From an uncultured Succinivibrionaceae bacterium (GTDB taxonomy: Bacteria; Pseudomonadota; Gammaproteobacteria; Enterobacterales; Succinivibrionaceae), in assembly GCA_944390105.1 (NCBI GenBank), contig CALXOV010000055.1, forward strand, positions 2,930-66,929: a stretch of 64,000 nucleotides of DNA, in the 5' to 3' direction. The translations under genes were made by a program, and so were the position numbers. Below the pieces are notes generated by a model. It ran no database searches, was not told where the DNA came from, and saw only the letters and a program-made list of their open reading frames with translations. Shown piece by piece: positions 49,892 through 62,331 of the stretch. The stretch's first letter is position 1. Every line of letters starts with the position of its first letter.

Positions 49892-50223
49892 GTTGTCACC
49901 TTTTCCTATCTCAATGCAGTGTCTGCGGCCAACATCAAAACCGTATGCTCCGTCAGCGCAGCTTGTGGCCGCATTACCGCAGCAGGGCTTTGAGGCAAAT
50001 TTCCGCCTGCATTTTCATCAATATGCTCAGGCATTATAGCGCTCTGCCAAATTGTTATTTGTATTGCACTATTAAGGTGAAGACAAAATTCAAACACGCA
50101 CCAAAATAGCGCTTATTTAGTAGATATCATGCAACAACAGATAGTTAAAATGTATCAAAAAAGAAACTTACTTTAATAGTCTAATTTTCATCGGATTGAT
50201 TACAGATTTGCAAGACGATAATT

Positions 50224-53076
50224 CTACTCGCCATCATCCCCATTCAACTCACTATCAGATTTAGATTTTTTATCGCTATCTTCGCCAGCCAATTCACGAA
50301 TTGCTTCAAGTCCTTTAATAGACCCTTCACCCTCAAAATATTCTTTTAATCTATCCCTAACTGCAACTAAATTATTATGATAGCTTACGAGGTTTGATTC
50401 CATACATCTCATAGGATCGGTGTATTTGACGGCTTCATCCATAATATTCATACATTCATTATAATACAGAATACCCTCATGACTAATATTATCACCTTTT
50501 ACATAAAGAAAGTCAGGCTCCTGAGCACGATATTTAAGCGCTTCTAGAATTAAATAAGCCGCATTGTAGAATGATTTTTTAAAATTTTTTGTTTTATATT
50601 CATTTTTCATTAAATTAATGCCACACTTAATCATCAATAGTGCTATTTTTCTGTCAATAATATGCTTGCTACTAGGATAGTTATCCAGCATTTTTCCCAA
50701 TGCCAACGCATGGGTTCCCTTAAATAAAATCATATTTTTACAAAAAGTTTTATAAAATAAATCAAATAACCTTTTCAGCGCATCATCAGAAGAAAAAACA
50801 CTAGCCGCATAATTCCAAATTAAAGTTTTTTTGGGATCCTGTTCTAGGATATCCAAAATAATTTTCTTAAACTTTTCAGTTAAATTTCCACGCAAATAAG
50901 CAGCACATCTAGGTATAGCCTGATTTACAACATAACGTTTTGTATCGTAATCTAAGCGATCTATGATATCTAAAAATTTTTCTAATATTGCTATATACTC
51001 ATTAATGAATGTATCATATTCATTTTTATATTCTTCAACATTGATGGAACCATATTGGTCAAGTAAGAAACAATATTTTTCACTATTATCAATATTTTTA
51101 ACCTTATCATATGCATTAAAAAATTTAGAATTTGGTAATTTATTTAAGATCTTTCTAGTTAAAACTAACCCCTTAACTCTACGAGGTTGATAAAGACAAA
51201 CTTCTACCTCATTTAGTAAAGTTTTATATTTTTTAATAAAATCTTTCATTGTTAAAATAGCAGACCAACATTTTCTAAATTTAACATAGTCTTTGTCATA
51301 ACTTCCGATTGTAAATGGCTCACATTTTAAATCTGGAGGATAAGATAACCCTCTCCTAAATCTATCCATAATCTCTTGAAGAGTAATATTACTCATGGAG
51401 TTAAAATCGAAACATTGACCTTCTTTTAGTCTACGATCAATTTTGGAAGAAATATCAGCAGCAGCAAATTTAATAATTGCATAGCCCGAAGCCGCAGACA
51501 TCTGCACTGTAGTAACTAGCTTTACCTTGGTTTTACTTATAGTATTGAAAGGCACATAACCAGCTCTTAACTGATTTGTAGTACTGCCTTTATTAAATTT
51601 TCCTTTGGCAATAAATACCTCAAAGTTGGATACATTTTCCGGCAGATAGAAAGTTATGTCGGTAATTTCGGATGAATAGATCTTACCTGCTGGATATCCA
51701 TTCTTTAAAATACTCGGCTTTAGCAGAGATATCGGTTTTGGTTCATTTTGCCCTTTTTCGATTGCAAAAATCGACAGCTCATCTAATTTATCATTATATG
51801 ATGGTAATCCCCTGGCCACGCGCTGGGCAAATAATGCCGTTCCATCAGCAATATCATCTTTATTGGTATACCACACTCCTCTATGTGCATAATTATCCCC
51901 GAGATAGTTCATAAAAAGGCCATTAGCCAGTTCTCTCGCAATAAATTCACTGCTAAGAGGTCCAGTTACAATTAATGAAGCTAACTTTTCATTGCTGATA
52001 TTGTGCATAACAAAAGCAACAACAGCATCTAACCACGCTTTTTTATCATAAATACTGACATCTGTATTTGTTATATTATACTTTTGATTTTTTAAATCGA
52101 TTAATAAACTATTAATATCTACTTTATTATCTTCAACTATGTTATTATTTAAGTTGTTAAAATGCAAATTTTCCACTTTAACCCAGCGTTTATTCAAATA
52201 GAAAATATAATTCTTTTCTTCTGTTGGTAATTTCAATAAACTTGGCCAAATCTGATCACATAAATTTAAAATTTGACTTTTCTCAGTGGCATTATACTTA
52301 TAATTAGGAAGACTTTTATTAAGTCTATCAATAAATAATTCAAACAAGCTCATCCCATCAAAAGGAAATCTTTCGCGTTCCTCATCAGGAAAATCTCTAA
52401 TTGGCACATAGAATGTTTTATTATTTTCAAGAGTAGGAGATACGGCAAAACTTGAAAATTCAACGCAATCTAGACCTAAATATAAAACTCCAAGCTCTTT
52501 ATTGCTTCCTTCAGTAAATTGCTGAGCATAATAATCCTGATGGGCTGGACGCCGCAACCAATCCATTGCCGCGGCCACTGTTCGCCAAACTAATCTAACG
52601 TCTTTAAGACCAAGTATTCTCTTCAGATCCTGCAACAGATGCTCTCTTGCATTCATATTGATGAAATTAGGCACGGCTACAGCTACGTGTGAATCACTTC
52701 CTAATCTTGTTGGGAACAGCGCTTTAATATGCTCTGCCATCAACTGTGAGCAGTTTATTCCATCCCACTTGTGAACTATATCTATATCTTCCATCAGCTT
52801 TTCCCAGATTAAGCTGATAAGCGCACGTTTGCCGCTAAAGGAATCCAAAGTTTTGAGCGGGTAAGAAGGTGGGAATGGAAAACCTAAGCCGGTTCGATCT
52901 CTCTTAGCACTGAAGCCAGTAGTGGGCAAGGTATAAGCATCATCGCTTAAGATCACGCAGGATGGCTGAAAATCATTACTGCGGTCCAAGGTAAATTCAG
53001 GTACATTATCTTCAATTGTGCTGAAAGAATCCCGCAAGCCGAAAGCTGCCACACCTATATACTTAGAATTACCCAT
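50224..53076 (-). CDS. divergent Hsp70-like protein (actin-fold NBD plus beta-sandwich) with a C-terminal alpha-helical extension of about 400 aa
   Basis: VAVAVPNFINMNAREHLLQDLKRILGLKDVRLVWRTVAAAMDWL (aa 131-174) parallels Hsp70 AVITVPAYFNDxQRQATKDAGxIAGLxVLRIINEPTAAALAYG. LIVTGPLSS resembles LVGGSTRIP, and DDIADGTALFAQRVARG resembles NPDEAVAxGAAxQA. Residues aa 430-545 read like an SBD-beta domain. The start overlaps the upstream gene's stop by 8 nt. Confidence 0.6.
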   Translation of the reverse strand: MGNSKYIGVAAFGLRDSFSTIEDNVPEFTLDRSNDFQPSCVILSDDAYTLPTTGFSAKRDRTGLGFPFPPSYPLKTLDSFSGKRALISLIWEKLMEDIDIVHKWDGINCSQLMAEHIKALFPTRLGSDSHVAVAVPNFINMNAREHLLQDLKRILGLKDVRLVWRTVAAAMDWLRRPAHQDYYAQQFTEGSNKELGVLYLGLDCVEFSSFAVSPTLENNKTFYVPIRDFPDEERERFPFDGMSLFELFIDRLNKSLPNYKYNATEKSQILNLCDQIWPSLLKLPTEEKNYIFYLNKRWVKVENLHFNNLNNNIVEDNKVDINSLLIDLKNQKYNITNTDVSIYDKKAWLDAVVAFVMHNISNEKLASLIVTGPLSSEFIARELANGLFMNYLGDNYAHRGVWYTNKDDIADGTALFAQRVARGLPSYNDKLDELSIFAIEKGQNEPKPISLLKPSILKNGYPAGKIYSSEITDITFYLPENVSNFEVFIAKGKFNKGSTTNQLRAGYVPFNTISKTKVKLVTTVQMSAASGYAIIKFAAADISSKIDRRLKEGQCFDFNSMSNITLQEIMDRFRRGLSYPPDLKCEPFTIGSYDKDYVKFRKCWSAILTMKDFIKKYKTLLNEVEVCLYQPRRVKGLVLTRKILNKLPNSKFFNAYDKVKNIDNSEKYCFLLDQYGSINVEEYKNEYDTFINEYIAILEKFLDIIDRLDYDTKRYVVNQAIPRCAAYLRGNLTEKFKKIILDILEQDPKKTLIWNYAASVFSSDDALKRLFDLFYKTFCKNMILFKGTHALALGKMLDNYPSSKHIIDRKIALLMIKCGINLMKNEYKTKNFKKSFYNAAYLILEALKYRAQEPDFLYVKGDNISHEGILYYNECMNIMDEAVKYTDPMRCMESNLVSYHNNLVAVRDRLKEYFEGEGSIKGLEAIRELAGEDSDKKSKSDSELNGDDGE

Positions 53077-54736
53077 TCTGCACCACCCGATTTAGTAAGC
53101 TTGTTACAGCCATCTGCACTTGTTCAGATACATTTCTCCATTGGCCTATCTGCATGGGTACGTGACACAGCAATGCATGTTCTTTTTCCTCATTAAACGC
53201 AGATGGGGTAACTTTTAGTTCATAATTAAAAGTTAAACTTAATAAATGCCATTCCTGCAACTCCAAAAGCTCATAATCATTAATACATGACTCTGAGCTT
53301 TTGAGGATTTGTGACGCAACCTCAGCATTGTCCTCATGCGTGCTTAATGCATTATTCAATGAATACAACAATATTAAATAAGGCTTATCATCCTCATTCA
53401 ACGGTGTACACAGAATACATGACTTTGTTCCTAATATAGATGCGGTTTGCGCAGCCGTATTGTAAAGATCATCTTGCCGCGACGTTATAGGGATGCTGTT
53501 GACATCCGAAATAAAATCAATGACATATTCTCGTCCAGAGCTACCGCATAAATAAAATGAACCTGGCGGCAATGAATGATCTAGTAATACCCCCTGTCTA
53601 TTTTCCTTTCTTATCTTTAAATTAGACGTTGCAATCAGTTCCAAGGTGAAATTAGGATTTGATGAATTTTCATTTGGTAATACATACAGAGCGGATGCCA
53701 TCAGCAGACATGATAGATCGGAGGAAGTTATATACAGCCAATGCAACAGATTATCGACCCTTCTATTATGTCTCAGCAAGTCCTGATAATACTGCCATAC
53801 TTTTCTATACCTTAAATCATTCTGTAGCACATAATTAGGAACTATAGCCGCAGCAGGCCGGCGCACATATGTAAATTCAGCTCTATGCAAGCCATCAATA
53901 CATTGTTGCTCAAAGTGTTTGACTAAATCTTCATTAGAAGATTTATGGTTTTCTTTGAGAAAATTAGTGCAGGCTAAGATACATCTGCGCAAAAAATCTT
54001 TTAATACTTGATTTTCAAGCAGATCATAATTTTCAGTTCGCACTACCGCCAAAATCTTACTATCGTTAGCTGCAGCTTTCTGGAAAATACTCTTGCCTGG
54101 CTGCTTGACCAACCAGCGCAGGCTGTTCACATTAACTTCATTGACTTTATCTAATTTCTGTAATCTATCTTCACGTTTTAAAGTCTTTCTTATACCGCTC
54201 AGCACTAATGGTAGAAATTTTGTAAATTCATTACTAATCGTGACTATAAGGGGCTTATAGATCTCTTCATCTTCTTGAACCATTTTCACTATTATTTCCG
54301 GCAAATCATCATAGCGGAACAGTTCATGCTCAAATTTAACATTAACATTATTCGGATCTGATTTGTACGCAAGATAATCAAAAAATCCTATCCAGCTTTT
54401 TAGACATTCTTTAAGTTCTTCACTAAAATTTTGATCTCCCAAGTAGTGAAAATTCTTAAACCTTATCTTAGCCCATTCAATGCATAGATTATTTTCAATG
54501 CTACTATTATGCTCTGAATAAGGCATTGCCACCAACATATACCAGCGGTGATTTTTATAATATTTCCTTCCTATGCAGGAATATTCTGTAAGTAAGTTAA
54601 GTTGATTTAAATCATCTTGAGGAACTTCAAGTAATACACTTCCTAAGAAAGAGTAATCTTGCACAGCACCATTAATTGACCTGCTAGATTTAAATTCCCA
54701 TTCCCAAGGATAAGTTTTTACTATTATTTCATGCAT
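53069..54736 (-). CDS. McrC/DUF2357-like partner protein of the McrB-like NTPase
   Basis: Sits immediately downstream (3-nt gap) of the McrB-like gene. RTENYDLLENQVLKDFLRRC (aa 233-252) resembles the (S/T)xDxxENRxxKxFL motif of DUF2357/McrC-like proteins. I could not find a D...(D/E)xK motif by eye. Confidence 0.5.
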   Translation of the reverse strand: MHEIIVKTYPWEWEFKSSRSINGAVQDYSFLGSVLLEVPQDDLNQLNLLTEYSCIGRKYYKNHRWYMLVAMPYSEHNSSIENNLCIEWAKIRFKNFHYLGDQNFSEELKECLKSWIGFFDYLAYKSDPNNVNVKFEHELFRYDDLPEIIVKMVQEDEEIYKPLIVTISNEFTKFLPLVLSGIRKTLKREDRLQKLDKVNEVNVNSLRWLVKQPGKSIFQKAAANDSKILAVVRTENYDLLENQVLKDFLRRCILACTNFLKENHKSSNEDLVKHFEQQCIDGLHRAEFTYVRRPAAAIVPNYVLQNDLRYRKVWQYYQDLLRHNRRVDNLLHWLYITSSDLSCLLMASALYVLPNENSSNPNFTLELIATSNLKIRKENRQGVLLDHSLPPGSFYLCGSSGREYVIDFISDVNSIPITSRQDDLYNTAAQTASILGTKSCILCTPLNEDDKPYLILLYSLNNALSTHEDNAEVASQILKSSESCINDYELLELQEWHLLSLTFNYELKVTPSAFNEEKEHALLCHVPMQIGQWRNVSEQVQMAVTSLLNRVVQNG

Positions 54737-54739
54737 ATA

Positions 54740-56968
54740 TTACTCGTCAGCTCTATATAAGCCTACCCAATTGAAAATTCCTGTTTCCTGAGAGCTTATA
54801 TCAATTGACTGACTGATGGATTCAGCTAACTTAGCGTCACTAAGCTTAGTCGCTACAAACTCTTTTAAGGCATTGAGCTCATTGCGTTTGCTGTTAACAT
54901 CGACACCTCTCAATTTAGGCAGGATCTTATGTTCAATTTGATCTGACATGGCATATTTCAAACTGGTTTGAATGTTCACTCCATCGTGGGGATAATTCAT
55001 AATATAATCCCGTATGGAATTATCCACACGCAAACCAAAAGGCCGGCCTAAATCTTTCATGAGTTTGGATAATTCAACTATCCAATTATTGACATTGACC
55101 TTATCTTGGTTATTATCAAAGGATTTTTTAATCCATTTGCACCATGTTTCATAATTGATAAAATATTTATTTTCATTATCTGAAGCAATTTGAGTCTCAT
55201 TGTCCACTTTATTGGGTCTACCGAATCTAATAACATCTGAGCGATCCAGCACTTTATCTGCTAAGGTCTGCGTTGTCTCATCTTCATTCATAGTACCAAC
55301 AAAAAGAATATTTTTCGGTACCCAGAGCTTAAGATCATTCTGCACATTTAATGATATTTCAGCTTGAGATATTTCCTCATCAGTAATATTCTTTACATTT
55401 CGCCTAAATTCTAATTTAGATAAAAACTCCGAGAAATAATATTCAGTTCGTGCCAAATTCATTTCATCTAATAAAACTAATAGCATTGGTGAATTATCGC
55501 TCAAGTCTTTAATAACATCATTGTTATCAAAGTATCGTATGTTTTTATTATTTAACTTGTTTTTTCTCCTAAATACATAATCATAGGCATTTAAGCTCTT
55601 AGCTAAATCGGTTGCTTGATATTTTCCAGTTAAGTAATTATAGAACCCTAATAAATCCTGTGGAGAATCCCAACGCGGCTGAACTGAAATAATTAGATTA
55701 TTCATGCCGAAGTATTTTGCATACTGGGTAGGCAGCAACGACTTACCAGTACCTGACAGTCCAGCTAAAACTGTCAAAGGACTTATATCTTGAATCTTCA
55801 GACTGGTATGAAAAGATTTGATCAGTCTTTGGCTGAAAATTAATTTATTGTTTTTTAAATAATCGTAAAAATTATCTAAAGCTTGTAATTCATTTTCCGG
55901 CTTACGATTATTTGTTTTTTGCGTGAAAGATAAACATGAAGGAATGCGATATAAGTCAGCGAAAGCATCAGTTTCCTTGTTAAGCTTAAGCTTATCATTC
56001 TCATCGTGCAGCCGCTGATTTTCTTTCTTAAGTTGATTTTGATCAAAACATCCTTGAATATATTTCTGAATAAGATATGCCGTATCCCGGATGTTGTTGC
56101 TAAGCTGTTCGTTGAGCACATGCATAACTGCTTTATGCTGCGCATCAAGATCCTTTTTCAGACTGCTATCTAAGACCTCTGCTTGATTAAGTAGCGCCTT
56201 CCCTAAGGCTTGACCGTGAGATTTAAAGACGTTATCAAAAGATTGGGCTAATGCATTACCTTGGTTTTTAAAGACTTCATCAAAAGATTGGGCCAATGAT
56301 CTGCCCTGATCCGTCATCGCCTGTTTAAAACCGTCTGCCAGCGAATTTTCATCAAAGCTGAAATTATCCTTGTTAAACGCTTCAGTTAAGATACTCTGCA
56401 AGTTTGAGGCAATTTCTTTATCCACATGCAACAAGCTTTGCTCTGCGCGCAAATCCTCAATTTTCTGTTCTAGTTCAGCTAACTCTGCCTGCTGCTGCTT
56501 TATCAGCGCGCGCTTTTCCTCATATTCATTCAGCTCCCGCTTAATGCGTTCATATTCAGCGCTTTTATCCTTTAATTCGCTTAATTCGCGCTCTTTAGTT
56601 TCAATCTTTAATTTTAGGTCCGTCAAACGTTCTGTATATTGCCTTTCAAGCTGTTCTAAGTTATTTCTTAATTGATCAAGATCTTTGTCTTGCTGCACAG
56701 CTTCAGCATAATTCTGTTTAAGGCGAATTAGCTCTTCATGAATTTGATCCTTTTTAGTCTGCATTACTTGGACTTGGTTGCGCAGATCCGTTAGCTTTTT
56801 GGCATTAAGATCCATAGCATCTGCAAATTTCTTTGAATGCAAAAAGATACTAGGAATTTTGTTATAGTTTGAAATAGTCACCATCGCATAGATTAATACA
56901 ATGATGGCAACAATAAGCCCGACCAATGGCAAGTACAGCCAAAAATTTCCCGCAAAGCTTAAATCCAT
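54740..56968 (-). CDS. membrane-anchored coiled-coil protein fused to a McrB-like AAA+ (AAA_5) NTPase
   Basis: TM helix FWLYLPLVGLIVAIIVLIYAMVTI (aa 9-32), then heptad-rich E/K/Q/L sequence at about aa 55-335. Walker A GLSGTGKS (aa 403-410, nt 55739-55762) and Walker B LLVLLDEMNLARTEYYFSEFLSKLE. FVGTMNEDETTQTLADKVLDRSDVIRF corresponds to the McrB MNTADRS...RRF region. Confidence 0.75.
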   Translation of the reverse strand: MDLSFAGNFWLYLPLVGLIVAIIVLIYAMVTISNYNKIPSIFLHSKKFADAMDLNAKKLTDLRNQVQVMQTKKDQIHEELIRLKQNYAEAVQQDKDLDQLRNNLEQLERQYTERLTDLKLKIETKERELSELKDKSAEYERIKRELNEYEEKRALIKQQQAELAELEQKIEDLRAEQSLLHVDKEIASNLQSILTEAFNKDNFSFDENSLADGFKQAMTDQGRSLAQSFDEVFKNQGNALAQSFDNVFKSHGQALGKALLNQAEVLDSSLKKDLDAQHKAVMHVLNEQLSNNIRDTAYLIQKYIQGCFDQNQLKKENQRLHDENDKLKLNKETDAFADLYRIPSCLSFTQKTNNRKPENELQALDNFYDYLKNNKLIFSQRLIKSFHTSLKIQDISPLTVLAGLSGTGKSLLPTQYAKYFGMNNLIISVQPRWDSPQDLLGFYNYLTGKYQATDLAKSLNAYDYVFRRKNKLNNKNIRYFDNNDVIKDLSDNSPMLLVLLDEMNLARTEYYFSEFLSKLEFRRNVKNITDEEISQAEISLNVQNDLKLWVPKNILFVGTMNEDETTQTLADKVLDRSDVIRFGRPNKVDNETQIASDNENKYFINYETWCKWIKKSFDNNQDKVNVNNWIVELSKLMKDLGRPFGLRVDNSIRDYIMNYPHDGVNIQTSLKYAMSDQIEHKILPKLRGVDVNSKRNELNALKEFVATKLSDAKLAESISQSIDISSQETGIFNWVGLYRADE
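56222..56311 (-). repeat. imperfect 45-nt tandem duplication inside the coiled-coil region (15-aa units LAQSFDEVFKNQGNA / LAQSFDNVFKSHGQA)
   Basis: Units at 56222-56266 and 56267-56311 both begin TTTAAAGAC..ATCAAAAGATTGGG on the plus strand. Confidence 0.8.
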
Positions 56969-57035
56969 CTTTAATCCCTTTTATATCAAAGTTAACTCTA
57001 AATTCTGCCGATAAATTTATTAGTAAACTGAAGAA

Positions 57036-58574
57036 CTAGTCTTCAGCCTCCAGTTGGTCTAATGTCTTCACATACTGCTGAGCAGTACTCTTAAAATGAT
57101 CTAATTGCGTAGCATCAAGTCCTGCATTGGTACTCAGATTTGCAATATCATCTTCACTCATTGCATCGAACTGCTTTATGGTTGCGTCTAATGCTTGCGT
57201 ATTAGCACGCAGCTGCTCAGCTGTATTGATGCTTATCTGAAGCGCTACGGCTGCAGACACCTTCTGCTGTGACTCAGCTAGACTTGCGATAATTGCATTC
57301 AGCTGCGTATTTTGCTGATTAAAAGCATCAGTAGCTCGTTGCAGTTGCTGTGTATATGGATCTAAGTTAGTTTTATTGTTTATCTCAGTAACTGCACTTT
57401 GATAATTTGCTGCAGTTTTTACAACTTGTTCACGTAAGATGACAAGTTCATCCAGCATAGAGCTTAGAGTTACCTGTTTCTCTTGACTATTGCTTGGCGC
57501 ATTGTGCCTATCGTTAGTTCCTACCAACTGGTTCAAGTTAGTAATCGCCGTGCTGATATTTTCTGCAGATGAAGCCAGCTTGCTATTAGTTCCAGTAAAA
57601 TCCACTTGCTGCAGTTGTTCATTTTTAGCTTGCAGAGCCTTAATCTCTGCTGTTAAGCTGTCATGTAACTGTGTGTATGATCTGTATTCACTGCTGTAAT
57701 TATTCAACACAGTATCTAATGTATTCTTTTGTCCTGCAATATCATTCACTTTTTTATTAAATTGCTCTGAAGCAACGCGGATATTCTTAGCATAATGCGC
57801 AATAGAGTTCGGTTCATTCTCATCTAGCTGATCATTTAACTTATCATTTACGGTCATGTAGTCATTGATAATGCCACTGATTCTAGTCTGCATATCAGAT
57901 AACGATTTTGTCAGCACATTTATCGAACTGTCCTCTTGTTTAAGTGCTGCAAACCGCTTTTCCAGGGAAGTTAACTCTATTTCAGTTGCTTCTTTTTTAC
58001 TCAACAATCCATTTACTTCATCGGTTAAACTTGATGCTGTCCGTTTAAGCGTAGTTTGCTCATTTCTTAAGGACGTTATTTCTTTATTCAACGTCTGCTT
58101 ATCAGCCTGTAGGGAAGCTAGCTCATTTGTTAATTTAACCTTACTGGCATTAAGCTCTCCGACTTCTGCCTTCAAGTCTTCATAACGAGCCAATACAGCT
58201 ACAGCTTCATCGTAAGCTTGTTTTTTAGCGTCATACTCTGCGGCGATTGACTTAAGCTCAGCACGATTCTTTTCCAGCCCAAAAGAAATTTCATTAAATT
58301 CTTGGCGCATCCCGGGCAGTTCGGAAATGTAGTGCTGATAGTCGGCCAGATCCTGCTCTAGCTGCTGCTTTTCTTCGATGAAAGTATTGCGCTGCCATAA
58401 CTCGATGGCAAAGCAACAGATACAGAAAATCGTCACCGCCGAAATACCGCAAATTAAGCCGATAAAACGGGATTTGGGCATTTTTTTATCAATAGATAAA
58501 TCATAAAATGCATCGTTATCTTCCATGTGCGATAAATCAGCAGAGTCAGACTGTGCATTAAAATCCGATTTCAT
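57036..58574 (-). CDS. membrane-anchored long coiled-coil protein (512 aa) with no enzymatic motif
   Basis: TM helix FIGLICGISAVTIFCICCFAIELW (aa 37-60). The rest is Q/L/N/E/A/T-rich heptad-like sequence. The start overlaps the helicase stop by 17 nt and is preceded by GAGGGA. Confidence 0.6.
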   Translation of the reverse strand: MKSDFNAQSDSADLSHMEDNDAFYDLSIDKKMPKSRFIGLICGISAVTIFCICCFAIELWQRNTFIEEKQQLEQDLADYQHYISELPGMRQEFNEISFGLEKNRAELKSIAAEYDAKKQAYDEAVAVLARYEDLKAEVGELNASKVKLTNELASLQADKQTLNKEITSLRNEQTTLKRTASSLTDEVNGLLSKKEATEIELTSLEKRFAALKQEDSSINVLTKSLSDMQTRISGIINDYMTVNDKLNDQLDENEPNSIAHYAKNIRVASEQFNKKVNDIAGQKNTLDTVLNNYSSEYRSYTQLHDSLTAEIKALQAKNEQLQQVDFTGTNSKLASSAENISTAITNLNQLVGTNDRHNAPSNSQEKQVTLSSMLDELVILREQVVKTAANYQSAVTEINNKTNLDPYTQQLQRATDAFNQQNTQLNAIIASLAESQQKVSAAVALQISINTAEQLRANTQALDATIKQFDAMSEDDIANLSTNAGLDATQLDHFKSTAQQYVKTLDQLEAED

Positions 58575-61500
58575 CGTGGTCCCTCATCATTTGCTGCCAT
58601 TTATCTAAAACCTGCTGAGCACATTGCGCAGGTTCGGCATAAACCTTTCTTCCCCAAAAACGTAATACTTCATAGTGCAGCGCGCCCATCTGCAGATCAC
58701 GCAGGTAATCATCAGCCTTCCGCTGTCCCATGGCATCTACATGACAGTTGCCGTCCACTTCAACATCCAAAAAGAGTTTACGTTCTTCATCAATAAAGGC
58801 AAAATCCAAGCGGCGATTAATCGCGGGCAGCGGATATTGAACCTTAGGTTTTGGCAGTGGCAATTTTTTAAGATGCCACAGCATCAAACGTTCAAGCGGA
58901 GATTCGGTAAGAGCCATGTCATCATCATCATCAAGACTGCCCTCGGCCCCACCGACAGCCGGCAAAGTGCGGATAAATTCAGCATCAGACATTAGTGCAG
59001 CCTCAGTATTGCCAACGACGCACACCAGTGAACGTGCTCGAGAAACTGCAACATTCAGAATATTTTTATTGCCGCTGATAAAGGCGTTTCCGAAACGCGA
59101 GGTCAAGCACAAACTCAGGATCACAATATCCCATTCAGAGCCCTGTGCTTGATGCACTGACTGAATAGTTAAATCCCCAAGTCCTTGCTGGACAGACTCG
59201 TCTCCGGCAGTCTGCAAATGAACTGCCAATAGGCTGTCAGCTGCAACTGCTTGTCTAATCCTGTCCACTTGAAGTTTATACGGAGACAAGATTCCTACAG
59301 TGCCCCCAAAGTCTGCATCTGCATAAATTGTGTGCAGCAGTTCAAGCACTGCCTTAATCTCAGCTGCATTGCTACGTGAGGAATTAGTACTGCTTTTTTC
59401 GGTCTGATCTGCTGTCTCATACCACTTTATGCCGTATTCCATATGCTTCGGCAACGGCAGATCAGCTTCGCTGCAGCGTGAAATGAGCATCCCGTCATAA
59501 CACAAGTCTGAAATATACTGCGTAATGCGGTTGCAGGAGCGATATGACTGGATTAATGACAATTTTTCCGCTCCCGGCGTCAAATAAGCAAAAGCGTAGA
59601 GTGATTTAATATCCTGCCCTAATTCAGGAAATGCATTGCACAGCCACAGTCTACTTTCAACCGCGTTCATCTCTAAGCCGTTGTTGCGCATGATTGAATC
59701 CTGCTTAGATACGCTGACGGCATTAACGATCGGCCCTAATTGATTTGGGTCACCGATAACAGCCGCCGCTTTAGCGCGATACAGCAAAGGAATGGCAGCC
59801 ACAAAATCAAACTGCGAGCTTTCATCAAAAATAACCAAATCAAACATGCCGGCTATTAAGGGAAATAAGCTGCGGGCAGAAGCTGTTGTGCATAGCCATA
59901 TCGGCTTATGCTGCAGAATTTGTTTAACCTTGTGGCTAAGGTGAGTGCAAAAGTCAGCGTCAGTCAGTAATTTGTCATTAAAATCATCTTTTTGCTTAGC
60001 ATCGCTATAAGCGTATTGCTTTAATTCGTTCAGATAATTTTGCCAATCCTTGGCATTATCGCATACATGCTCTGATGACCACACACAGTAGCGGATGGCT
60101 CGTTCATAGGCATCATGTAGCTTTTTTTGTTGCACTGCAAAATCTGCTTCTAGCTGCTCAATATCAGCATCGGCAGATAAAGTTCTGAGCTGCTCGGCAC
60201 AGAGGTTTTTGCGCAAGCTAAGAAGCAGATAATCATTTATTATCTTAAAGTTGCTGCTGTGCTTAACTAAGGCGTCAGTCAAAACTGATCCACCACTTAT
60301 CCGTAAGCGCAGCTTGGTCATAAAGGCGGTGATGCGATTTTTAAGGTTGAAAAAACTGCGTTCATCCTGACATCTACAGTACTGCGCAAAATATTGCATG
60401 CATTGTTGCAGATGATCGCTGCTAAACTTAGTAAGTTGTGGCTCAAGCTGTGTAAACACTGTTGCCAAATGCTTAAAACTGTTTTTCATCGTGTCACGGC
60501 AGCTGTCGTAATGCGCTATCTCAGTTTTAAGATTTTCTACGACATCTTTACGCTTTAAATGCTCCTGCAACTGTGTACGGAGCTGATTAAACTTGGCGAT
60601 GTCATTAAATGAAGCGTCTGTTGTCTCTGTCCTTTTACTTAACCCCATGGCCACAGAGTACAACGTGGCATCAGTGCCTTCTTTGCTGTTGGCCCGTATC
60701 GTTAGGTCTGTGGCATGCTCAATTTTCTGCAGCCTTTCAATCAGTGCATTAATAGCCTGATGGTTATATGAGGTAATTAACACGCTCTTACCCTGGGCAG
60801 CGGCATTTAAAGCCGCTGCCGCAATGACCTGCGTCTTACCGGTACCTGGTGGCCCCTGTAGCACGGTGATCCTATTGTCTAAGATCGATGCCACCGCAAG
60901 TTGCTGCTCAAAATTAAACGGCAGCTTATCTCTATCCGTACAAACAAGTTCAGGGTAGATACCCACAGCTGGTGCTGAATTATAGAGAAAAAGCGGCAAA
61001 ACCGAGTTTTTTAACTGCTGGCTTTGTGCGCGACTTATATTCTTTAAATCATGCTGAATGGATTTTAAAAAGGGATTTTCCCTAAATTCACCTAGCAGTG
61101 CGACGTTATAAATTCCATCATGGCGCAGACTGTTGAGTGAACTTAAGTTATAAATATTCAGTGGTTGCTGCGGCTGAAAATAGGTCTCGACCAACACCTT
61201 AAAGCATGACCAGCTATCAGCTTTAAGGAAATTGCTCATTGGATCAGCCTCTTCTGAAATAAGGCTGTCTACGCATACTTTGTATCTGCGCTTAAACTCC
61301 TCTGCAGCATGATCTTTATTGGCAAATTTAAGCTTAAACCAACTTTCATTGATTTTCGGAATTAAGTCTTCTTCAAAACTATTAAGTTTAATGCTGTTAG
61401 ACAGTATTGAAGCGTCGTATATGCGTACGTAAAAAATCGGGACAATCCGCTCATCAACAACATCTACCGGATACCCGAGGGTCATTGTTTTCCTGCCAAA

Positions 61501-62082
61501 ATCAAATTGTTGGCAATCACTGCCTGCCATAACGCTATCACTTACCGAAGTAAGTTGCATTGAACTGCCATAGGTATGCTTATTCCACCGCGGCAGTTCG
61601 TCGATGTTGATGAAGGTTAGACCCTGATCTGATTTTTTATATTCCTGAGTTACCGATCCTTCACAGTTTTTTAAATCAATATAAGCGTTGATCAGTTGTT
61701 TAAATGAACTTTCATCAAGCTTCTGTTCAAACAGCTCATCCTCACTTAAAAACTGCTTTAAGAAATCCTTATCATTTACATTGGCCGAGATTAACTCCCG
61801 CCATGAGTAATGGCGCCGCGGCGAAGTGACGACATAAAAACAACCGGAAGGAGTTATTGTACGGAGTTTGTCCTGTCGAATTAAAAGATAAAATGCGGTA
61901 TGCGCCTGAATATAACTTAAATGAGCTTGAGTGCGTAAAATAGCAATGATGCTGGACTTATCCATCACCTGAGAGCGCGTCTGCATTACTTTCCATGCGC
62001 GCTGATAAATTTGAGAACTCGATAATGGAACTATATCATATTCATTATCACTGTCCTCGGAATAGGATAACGCATCTAGCAT
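58558..62082 (-). CDS. SF1 (Upf1/DNA2-like) helicase fused to a C-terminal Vsr/DUF559-like endonuclease domain, with an N-terminal region of about 390 aa of unknown function
   Basis: Motif I GPPGTGKT (aa 410-417, nt 60832-60855), motif II FDLVIFDESSQ (DESSQ at nt 59812-59826), QSYRS, VHQAQGSEWDIV and NVAVSRARS. C-terminal SPLERLMLWHL...RLDFAFIDEERKLFLDVEVDGNCH...DDYLRDLQMGALHYEVLRFW (aa 1060-1160, nt 58603-58905) matches the DUF559/Vsr-fold pattern. Confidence 0.8.
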   Translation of the reverse strand: MLDALSYSEDSDNEYDIVPLSSSQIYQRAWKVMQTRSQVMDKSSIIAILRTQAHLSYIQAHTAFYLLIRQDKLRTITPSGCFYVVTSPRRHYSWRELISANVNDKDFLKQFLSEDELFEQKLDESSFKQLINAYIDLKNCEGSVTQEYKKSDQGLTFINIDELPRWNKHTYGSSMQLTSVSDSVMAGSDCQQFDFGRKTMTLGYPVDVVDERIVPIFYVRIYDASILSNSIKLNSFEEDLIPKINESWFKLKFANKDHAAEEFKRRYKVCVDSLISEEADPMSNFLKADSWSCFKVLVETYFQPQQPLNIYNLSSLNSLRHDGIYNVALLGEFRENPFLKSIQHDLKNISRAQSQQLKNSVLPLFLYNSAPAVGIYPELVCTDRDKLPFNFEQQLAVASILDNRITVLQGPPGTGKTQVIAAAALNAAAQGKSVLITSYNHQAINALIERLQKIEHATDLTIRANSKEGTDATLYSVAMGLSKRTETTDASFNDIAKFNQLRTQLQEHLKRKDVVENLKTEIAHYDSCRDTMKNSFKHLATVFTQLEPQLTKFSSDHLQQCMQYFAQYCRCQDERSFFNLKNRITAFMTKLRLRISGGSVLTDALVKHSSNFKIINDYLLLSLRKNLCAEQLRTLSADADIEQLEADFAVQQKKLHDAYERAIRYCVWSSEHVCDNAKDWQNYLNELKQYAYSDAKQKDDFNDKLLTDADFCTHLSHKVKQILQHKPIWLCTTASARSLFPLIAGMFDLVIFDESSQFDFVAAIPLLYRAKAAAVIGDPNQLGPIVNAVSVSKQDSIMRNNGLEMNAVESRLWLCNAFPELGQDIKSLYAFAYLTPGAEKLSLIQSYRSCNRITQYISDLCYDGMLISRCSEADLPLPKHMEYGIKWYETADQTEKSSTNSSRSNAAEIKAVLELLHTIYADADFGGTVGILSPYKLQVDRIRQAVAADSLLAVHLQTAGDESVQQGLGDLTIQSVHQAQGSEWDIVILSLCLTSRFGNAFISGNKNILNVAVSRARSLVCVVGNTEAALMSDAEFIRTLPAVGGAEGSLDDDDDMALTESPLERLMLWHLKKLPLPKPKVQYPLPAINRRLDFAFIDEERKLFLDVEVDGNCHVDAMGQRKADDYLRDLQMGALHYEVLRFWGRKVYAEPAQCAQQVLDKWQQMMRDHDEIGF

Positions 62083-62143
62083 ATCATCATTATAATCGTG
62101 TGAATTTTTTCAAAGTTATTTTAAAAAGCAATTATATGTATAA

Positions 62144-62185
62144 ATTATAGCACCAGTAGCTTTTACAAAATAGCTATAATTTACC
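62144..62185 (-). promoter_or_regulatory. candidate extended -10 promoter for the island operon
   Basis: The minus strand reads GGTGcTATAAT (TATAAT at 62144-62149, TG at 62151-62152), about 60 nt upstream of the helicase ATG. The -35 element is poor. Confidence 0.3.
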
Positions 62186-62331
62186 CTCCAAAATTATACG
62201 TATATCTTTTATCCGACACTGCAATACCGCTCCCGCTCACTGCACTCAGCTCCTATATCGGCTCTACTGCGCTGCAGCAATCTGCTACCTACTAATTTAA
62301 GCTTAGAATGCTTAGTAGCGGGATTTTGCGG

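Follow-up and report, generated by a model that had tools for sequence, protein, structure and literature searches.

What does an Hsp70-like protein with degenerate ATP-binding motifs do at the end of an operon of McrB- and McrC-like genes? The question is raised by a 64,000 nucleotide (nt) stretch of DNA, here called the window, from an uncultured Succinivibrionaceae bacterium (GenBank assembly GCA_944390105.1, contig CALXOV010000055.1, positions 2,930 to 66,929 of the forward strand). The gene in question is an open reading frame (ORF) at 50224..53076 on the minus strand that has an ATG start, encodes 950 amino acids (aa) and is the last of five co-directional genes; its assignment as an Hsp70-like protein comes from the ORF, an AlphaFold2 model and the Foldseek matches of that model to DnaK. 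It is very probably cnuD of a Type III-B CoCoNuT, a defence operon that has five genes and derives from McrBC, and the genes are called cnuH, cnuA, cnuB, cnuC and cnuD below. Type III-B CoCoNuTs were defined by Bell, Makarova, Wolf and Koonin (eLife 2024, PMC11090510), with PDS29263.1 as the CnuD representative; in that description CnuD is an "Hsp70-like NBD/SBD" (nucleotide-binding domain/substrate-binding domain) with "HEAT-like repeats" and degenerate ATPase motifs, and RNA binding is proposed for it. The best explanation overall, to which we give a probability of roughly 85%, is that the window protein is a Type III-B CnuD and works as a sensor and switch by the mechanism proposed below.

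Searched alone, CnuD has no match in Pfam (none at E ≤ 1 for HSP70, PF00012), PADLOC or NCBIfam, or in the Protein Data Bank (PDB) by phmmer. An alignment of 66 CnuD relatives (alignment A2) is the basis of the residue counts, the AlphaFold2 model and the hhalign profile given here. The original prediction, read from the sequence by eye, was of an Hsp70-type NBD and a β-sandwich SBD (SBDβ) followed by a helical tail, and an actin/Hsp70 fold is what structure prediction returned. The AlphaFold2 model (pLDDT 84.7, pTM 0.76; one built from three close sequences only had a pLDDT of 48.6 and was set aside) has actin-like alternating strands and helices over aa 1–424, with a low-confidence, disordered insert at aa 308–336, then a β-rich block at aa 428–539 and finally helices at aa 548–939. 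The top 12 Foldseek matches of this model in the PDB are all Hsp70 or DnaK structures, the best being ATP-bound DnaK (4b9q_A, E 1.8e-14, TM-score (TMt) 0.52; 7krv_A has a TMt of 0.59), and DnaK chains that contain both NBD and SBD, with 630–770 aligned columns, outscore those with the NBD only (7n46, 1.3e-8; TMt 0.58–0.59). Actin, Arp2/3, MreB and MamK come next at about 1e-6, and the viral library BFVD gave the same order with Hsp70 homologues on top. The model shows CnuD as a predicted Hsp70-type NBD (aa 1–424, 51805..53076, from hhalign, AlphaFold2 and Foldseek) with a remodelled pocket, an interdomain linker and SBDβ-like sandwich (aa 425–545, 51442..51804, from the modelled strands, Foldseek and conservation) and an α-helical repeat tail (aa 546–950, 50227..51441) that is HEAT-like according to the published description and contains one small hairpin at aa 656–670, all on the minus strand. 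The absence of a HEPN motif, also part of the original prediction, holds in that the only R-x4–6-H sequence in CnuD is a single R-x5-H (R124..H130) that is not conserved across the family.

The linker and SBDβ-like region has its own conserved positions (P425, Y427, D429, G531 and A533). By eye, the family linker consensus PTYLDTLPQL resembles LLLDVTPLSL of DnaK and a PASGLAxV hairpin resembles DA(D/N)GILxV of Hsp70s. Local hhalign of this region against DnaK recovered only the helix at the end of the NBD (E 0.11–0.16), where it pairs CnuD DDIADGTALFAQ with DnaK PDEAVAIGAAVQ (E about 0.1), so the homology of the SBD rests on the model and on the by-eye PASGLA/DADGIL likeness.

For the nucleotide pocket, hhalign of the 66-sequence profile against E. 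coli DnaK aligned aa 2–245 collinearly with DnaK 1–242 (E 0.0056), in the register that had been proposed for the Hsp70 landmarks. Column counts in this alignment place the phosphate-1 equivalent YIGVAAFGLRDS at aa 6–17 (53026..53061), WRTVAAAMDWL, the equivalent of DnaK NEPTAAALAYG, at aa 164–174 (52555..52587) and the phosphate-2 equivalent VLYLGLDCVEFS at aa 197–208 (52453..52488), all on the minus strand. In it the canonical hydrolytic residue set of DnaK is shown to be replaced: D8 by A10 (in the family Ser in 40/66 and Ala in 12/66), E171 by R165 (Arg in 64/66), D194 by Y199 (Tyr in 53/66, His in 11/66), T199 by C204 (Ala, Gly or Ser in the family) and D201 by E206 (Glu in 60/66). DnaK G196 is retained as G201 (65/66), and G197 and G198 become L202 and D203, where the family consensus is P/D and position 203 is Asp in 63 of the 66 sequences. 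Two further residues of the pocket loops, G13 (64/66) and D16 (61/66), are nearly invariant; the LVGG strand reads (C/T)GP in the CnuD family with G372 present in all 66, and the DxIAxGAxxYG helix that ends the NBD is retained. The loss of the phosphate-1 Asp and the degeneration of the phosphate-2 loop had both been predicted, with the proviso that the catalytic residues might be present and merely displaced in a by-eye alignment. This is not what was found: D16 faces DnaK S14 and not D8, and a shifted alignment does not explain the missing Asp, because the loop between β1 and β2 (strands 5–10 and 17–22 of the model) has the same length as in DnaK. Twelve of the 66 relatives read GCSFDGL or GCSxEGL and so have an acidic residue at phosphate-1 position 12, where the window protein has F12; part of the family may have kept or regained a metal-binding carboxylate.

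The pocket seems to have been rebuilt and strongly conserved, not eroded, and because the remodelled residues are so strongly conserved it probably still binds a ligand; we lean towards a negligible ATPase activity for CnuD. The alternative that survives best is that CnuD is still a nucleoside triphosphatase (NTPase), with a catalytic centre re-wired around D16, D203, E206 and R165/R61/R227; it would then hydrolyse ATP or another NTP to work on the conformation of a bound substrate, as a genuine motor or chaperone of the complex. Such a centre would fit three features: charged and Gly positions that barely vary in the two phosphate loops and the adenosine-motif strand, the conserved DnaK-like linker, and the Asp or Glu that the minority of relatives just mentioned have at position 12. 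However, every alignable catalytic position of DnaK is substituted (D8 to A/S, E171 to R, D194 to Y/H and T199 to C/A/G), Arg in place of E171 inverts the charge where, by established enzymology, Hsp70 positions the catalytic water, and Bell et al. also concluded that CnuD binds but barely hydrolyses (PMC11090510). We consider an active NTPase unlikely.

The identity of the operon comes from its other genes, all of them on the minus strand. The published Type III-B set consists of a CnuH with a Vsr domain, a domain-less coiled-coil CnuA, an NxD CnuB, a CnuC with an inactivated nuclease and a separate CnuD (PMC11090510). The first gene of the window operon, cnuH (58558..62082), encodes a 1174 aa UPF1/DNA2-like superfamily 1 helicase joined to a Vsr/DUF559-like endonuclease, as judged from Pfam and PADLOC. 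It matches AAA_11 at 1.4e-21 over aa 389–786 and AAA_12 at 5.5e-29 over aa 839–1026, and at its C-terminus DUF559 (23.3 bits, cut-off 20.6) over aa 1098–1160 and MTES_1575 over aa 1087–1160; its PADLOC match is MkoA (2.9e-52), and aa 1–388 match nothing in the libraries. Since the AAA_11 model has 257 positions and spans aa 389–786, CnuH has a large insertion after its Walker A motif; the published CnuH has a helical insertion at that point, and also an N-terminal Sul7s-like winged helix-turn-helix and an OB fold (PMC11090510). The second gene, cnuA (57036..58574), encodes a 512 aa protein whose only matches in Pfam, PADLOC and NCBIfam are to coiled-coil models (SMC, Rad50, LmuB and JetC).

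The next gene, cnuB (54740..56968), encodes a 742 aa McrB-like AAA+ GTPase, identified by PADLOC and its motifs, that has an N-terminal transmembrane (TM) helix and coiled coil. PADLOC model PDC-M26A matches aa 200–459 at 1e-36 (Pfam AAA_5 matches weakly), and the unnamed PADLOC candidate system M26 is probably a CoCoNuT-type McrB; PADLOC has no model that matches CnuC or CnuD. Its coiled coil was read from the matches of aa 46–300 to the SMC, Rad50, TrlF and JetC coiled-coil models. The motifs, read directly, are Walker A GLSGTGKS (aa 403–410, 55739..55762), Walker B LVLLDEMN and an NxD signature, N561-E562-D563 in GTMNEDETT (55280..55288), that replaces NxxD and is found in 41 of 41 related full-length CnuB proteins. 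The fourth gene, cnuC (53069..54736), encodes a 555 aa McrC-like protein with a DUF2357 domain (PF09823, E 1e-9, 38.5 bits, cut-off 23.3). The C-terminal 220 aa contain no invariant (D/E)xK in a six-sequence alignment, in which one acidic position (VIDFI/VLEIV) is kept, and at the level of sequence CnuC is thereby shown to be without nuclease catalytic residues; the published CnuC has an N-terminal immunoglobulin-like β-sandwich and retains the nuclease fold though it is inactive (PMC11090510).

From cnuH to cnuD the junctions are −17, +67, +3 and −8 nt, so cnuH overlaps cnuA by 17 nt and cnuD begins inside the end of cnuC (53069..53076, minus strand), where GTG CAG AAT GGG TAA is read in one frame and ATG GGT AAT in the other. 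This last overlap is a probable case of translational coupling, which the original prediction had proposed. HMMs (hidden Markov models) built from five seed operons were searched against all ORFs of 91 loci and the window, and cnuC and cnuD overlap by 1–11 nt in 45 of 56 non-redundant loci (34 by 4 nt and 9 by 8 nt), so that coupling appears to be a trait of the family. The H-A-B-C-D gene order is found in L001, L007, L010 and every metagenomic locus with enough upstream DNA, over 40 of them, and is kept down to about 20% identity (the metagenome scan used a 12-sequence subset of the CnuD alignment as query). The HMMs missed genes A and H in the most distant loci, but according to Pfam the former encodes a coiled-coil protein there and the latter a helicase that has MTES_1575/DUF559; in one such relative, L090, MTES_1575 scores above the cut-off. 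Type III-C, which has a PLD effector, was considered for L082–L091 and rejected, since their combination of a coiled-coil gene with an MTES_1575/DUF559 helicase is Type III-B-like. Elsewhere, L001 lies in a defence-island setting, flanked upstream by a JetD gene and downstream by a Dcm/EcoRII pair, and in L074 (1100–12600) all five operon genes are split into several ORFs, a sign either of decay of this copy or of frame errors in the contig.

Gene by gene, then, the window agrees with Type III-B: cnuD is a free-standing gene downstream of cnuC and encodes an Hsp70-like NBD/SBD with a helical tail and degenerate ATPase motifs, and with it stand a CnuH-Vsr, a coiled-coil CnuA, an NxD CnuB with a long N-terminal coiled coil and a nuclease-dead CnuC with DUF2357, in an operon of five genes only that includes no TerY-P triad and no HEPN CnuE. 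Its CnuA additionally carries a predicted TM helix. It differs in that the nearest named relative of its CnuD is from the gut gammaproteobacterium Ca. Avisuccinivibrio, whereas Type III-B has been reported mainly in Alphaproteobacteria (PMC11090510). Type III-A CoCoNuTs, in which CnuC and CnuD are one fused polypeptide (CnuCD, PMC11090510), and the deepest NxD clade, with its Hsp70-McrB fusions, likewise attach an Hsp70-like NBD/SBD to a McrBC-derived module, with HEAT-like repeats beside the Hsp70-like unit in Type III-A; the window CnuD, in contrast, is unfused and linked to CnuC by the start/stop overlap only, and its operon has neither the HEPN CnuE effectors nor the TerY-P of Type III-A. 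Classical Type IV McrBC differs in that the window CnuB has NxD, not NxxD, and its CnuC is without a conserved (D/E)xK. Membership of CoCoPALM was considered because those systems also have an N-terminal TM helix and coiled coil before an NxD McrB-like GTPase, as in the window CnuB; it was rejected because the partner genes differ, CoCoPALM being associated with signal-peptidase and pilus-assembly genes and having no CnuH-Vsr, CnuA or CnuD.

Compared with DnaK itself, CnuD has the same NBD-linker-SBDβ architecture and collinear blocks (VPxxxxxxQ, xPxAAAxxx, DxIAxGA and a linker hydrophobic run followed by Asp). It differs in having no Pfam match, in the replacement of the catalytic D8, E171, D194 and T199, in a G-x-D in place of the Gly-rich phosphate-2 loop and in a 400 aa helical tail that is far larger than the Hsp70 lid, and its gene lies in a defence operon with no DnaJ-like or GrpE-like gene among its genes. 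The best Hsp70 matches of the family profile in the PDB are the atypical Hsp70s 4gni and 5mb9 (E 0.09–0.14, not significant), which we take to be Ssz1 of the ribosome-associated complex. Ssz1 is a eukaryotic atypical Hsp70 that serves as a regulatory or adaptor subunit, binds nucleotide without meaningful hydrolysis and contacts the ribosome via Zuo1; it differs from CnuD in having no McrBC partners, and its sequence similarity to the CnuD family is not significant. The same hmmsearch of the PDB with the family profile gave nothing significant, the best matches being de novo helical bundles and antibody strands.

A second alternative is that CnuD is purely a scaffold, a rigid pseudo-enzyme adaptor that joins CnuC to the coiled coils of CnuA and CnuB and senses no ligand. 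The loss of the catalytic residues, the long helical tail, which is suited to protein-protein contacts, and the fusion to CnuC in Type III-A would all be expected of such a protein, but a scaffold could do without the Gly, Asp, Glu and Arg residues that hardly vary in the loops of the nucleotide pocket, and without a linker and SBDβ hairpin motif (PASGLA) conserved across sequences that are only about 20% identical, and we hold this to be very unlikely. A third alternative, in which an artefact of modelling or convergence accounts for the Hsp70 likeness and the N-terminal half is a generic ASKHA/actin fold (sugar-kinase, MreB or ParM-like) beside a β region unrelated to the SBD, draws on the lack of a Pfam HSP70 match, the low hhalign probability, the matches to actin, MreB and Arp at 1e-6 and the moderate TM-scores (TMt 0.51–0.59), and is extremely improbable beside twelve leading matches that are all Hsp70s and score best when the SBD is included.

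The CnuD family is large, and the window protein is a divergent member of it. A word-indexed search of 5.8 billion proteins found two relatives only, P0001 (50% identical) and P0002 (33%), and still only two when 3- and 66-sequence profiles were the query; P0002 is from a metagenome-assembled genome of Candidatus Avisuccinivibrio stercorigallinarum, Succinivibrionaceae. When a three-sequence profile was run exhaustively with HMMER, 275 representative proteins came up at E ≤ 1e-3, of which 133 also pass E ≤ 1e-10; their length is mostly 800–1000 aa. With relatives so numerous and the window CnuD 20–25% identical to the bulk of them, the family is sizeable and the window protein lies on a divergent branch. 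PF00012 matched one of 53 family members, weakly (E 0.0027). Among the 53 relatives scanned (alignment A3), two have a Mrr_N domain (best E 2.8e-11), and that alignment also contains two long relatives, P0112 (1597 aa) and P0123 (1405 aa); the length of these suggests that other restriction modules are fused to the Hsp70-like unit in them.

Both CnuA and CnuB have a predicted TM helix, at aa 37–59 of CnuA (58398..58466, KD19 2.55) and aa 10–33 of CnuB (56870..56941, KD19 2.79), both on the minus strand. In a survey of non-redundant loci drawn from the window, L001, L005, L007, L010 and L013–L091, a single N-terminal helix of this type was present in 32/32 CnuA and 39/41 CnuB proteins and in none of the controls (CnuH 0/31, CnuC 0/51 and CnuD 0/62, together 0/144). 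It is preceded by a conserved motif, (I/V)P(F/Y)LP in CnuB and LD(K/R)xFP(S/P) in CnuA. The flanks of the CnuB helix carry on average 0.10 Lys or Arg on the N side versus 3.05 on the C side (the bias holds in 39/39), and the predicted topology is therefore N-out/C-in, with a short periplasmic N-terminus and a cytoplasmic coiled coil and GTPase; the flank charges of CnuA are ambiguous as to topology. Because CnuA and CnuB carry these helices, their complex is probably membrane-anchored. We note that, figures aside, the text and supplements of Bell et al. mention TM helices for the separate CoCoPALM clade only and not for Type III-B, and that the same text and supplements do not mention a conserved remodelled CnuD pocket (PMC11090510). 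A broader proposal joins the two observations, namely that Type III-B CoCoNuTs are tethered to the inner membrane and that CnuD represents a new class of Hsp70-derived sensor with a re-wired, conserved pocket (S10/G13/D16, R165 and G201-x-D203-x-x-E206). On that proposal, which as a whole we regard as rather improbable, the pocket may hold a ligand that is not ATP (a signalling nucleotide or the end of an RNA, for instance), and at the membrane, the site of genome entry, CnuD may detect protein or nucleic acid of the phage and switch on CnuH via the GTPase.

The preferred reading of CnuD as a sensor-switch would work as follows. CnuD would be made in step with CnuC and bind the CnuC/CnuB GTPase complex. 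Its NBD would hold a nucleotide or related ligand with slow or no hydrolysis, as a switch and not a motor, and the conserved linker would pass the state of the NBD to the SBDβ and helical tail, which would capture the trigger. The trigger would most likely be single-stranded RNA or a ribosome- or phage-associated polypeptide; RNA as the CnuD ligand is a tentative choice that we put at somewhat less than even odds. Occupancy of CnuD would be signalled to the CnuB GTPase ring, which would be tethered with CnuA to the inner membrane via their long coiled coils, and this signal would license the Vsr-like domain of CnuH, the only intact nuclease of the system, to degrade the nucleic acid of the invader (or the host).

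Several points weigh against this reading. The likeness of CnuD to Hsp70 in sequence is statistically weak (the hhalign E of 0.0056 and no Pfam match), and the homology comes mainly from predicted structure. The placement of D16, D203, E206 and R165 in the pocket comes from the alignment with DnaK, the E. coli reference sequence for the residue mapping was entered by hand, and DnaK K70 found no alignable CnuD counterpart in hhalign. The conserved acidic residues of the phosphate loops could be those of a non-canonical but real NTPase. The only nuclease belongs to a DNA-type family (Vsr), which RNA targeting does not obviously fit. The Type III-B assignment is based on gene content, gene order and motifs. 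Finally, we found in the literature no experiments on any Type III-B system or any CnuD.

The operon forms a low-G+C island that adjoins ilvI/ilvH. The G+C content is 0.337 in cnuD, 0.362 in cnuC, 0.361 in cnuB, 0.401 in cnuA and 0.437 in cnuH (34–44% over the block), versus about 0.50 in the flanks (window 50000–62300), and the adjoining ilvI has about 66% nucleotide identity to its E. coli counterpart. The operon of the 50%-identical CnuD relative (L005) is also near ilvIH, with two extra genes between, and has a host-like G+C content of 0.50–0.55. A promoter and terminator scan of the window operon found sites no more numerous than in shuffled sequences, and transcript ends are not defined by it.

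The structural claims of the original prediction stand; what it did not recognise is that the five-gene cassette corresponds to a described CoCoNuT system. Its suggestion of a non- or poorly hydrolysing RNA or peptide binder is the same as that of Bell et al. (PMC11090510), so the core finding is already published and the window locus independently reproduces the structural argument for CnuD. With this locus, a defence family that computation alone has revealed gains a divergent example that is gut-associated and gammaproteobacterial. It also points to pocket residues that appear to be under selection (D16, R165, D203 and E206) as targets for testing, together with the translational coupling and the membrane anchoring; follow-up seems most worthwhile for the anchoring and for the pocket, re-wired but conserved. 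A Type II CoCoNuT protects Pseudomonas aeruginosa against PP7 and LeviOr01, which are RNA phages, and the DNA phage MPK7 (bioRxiv 10.64898/2026.04.06.716636), and if CoCoNuTs target RNA, as this first Type II experiment suggests, CnuD would be the best candidate for a specificity subunit. If the sensor-switch reading is true, the re-use of the Hsp70 fold as a non-hydrolysing immune sensor would be a notable exaptation.

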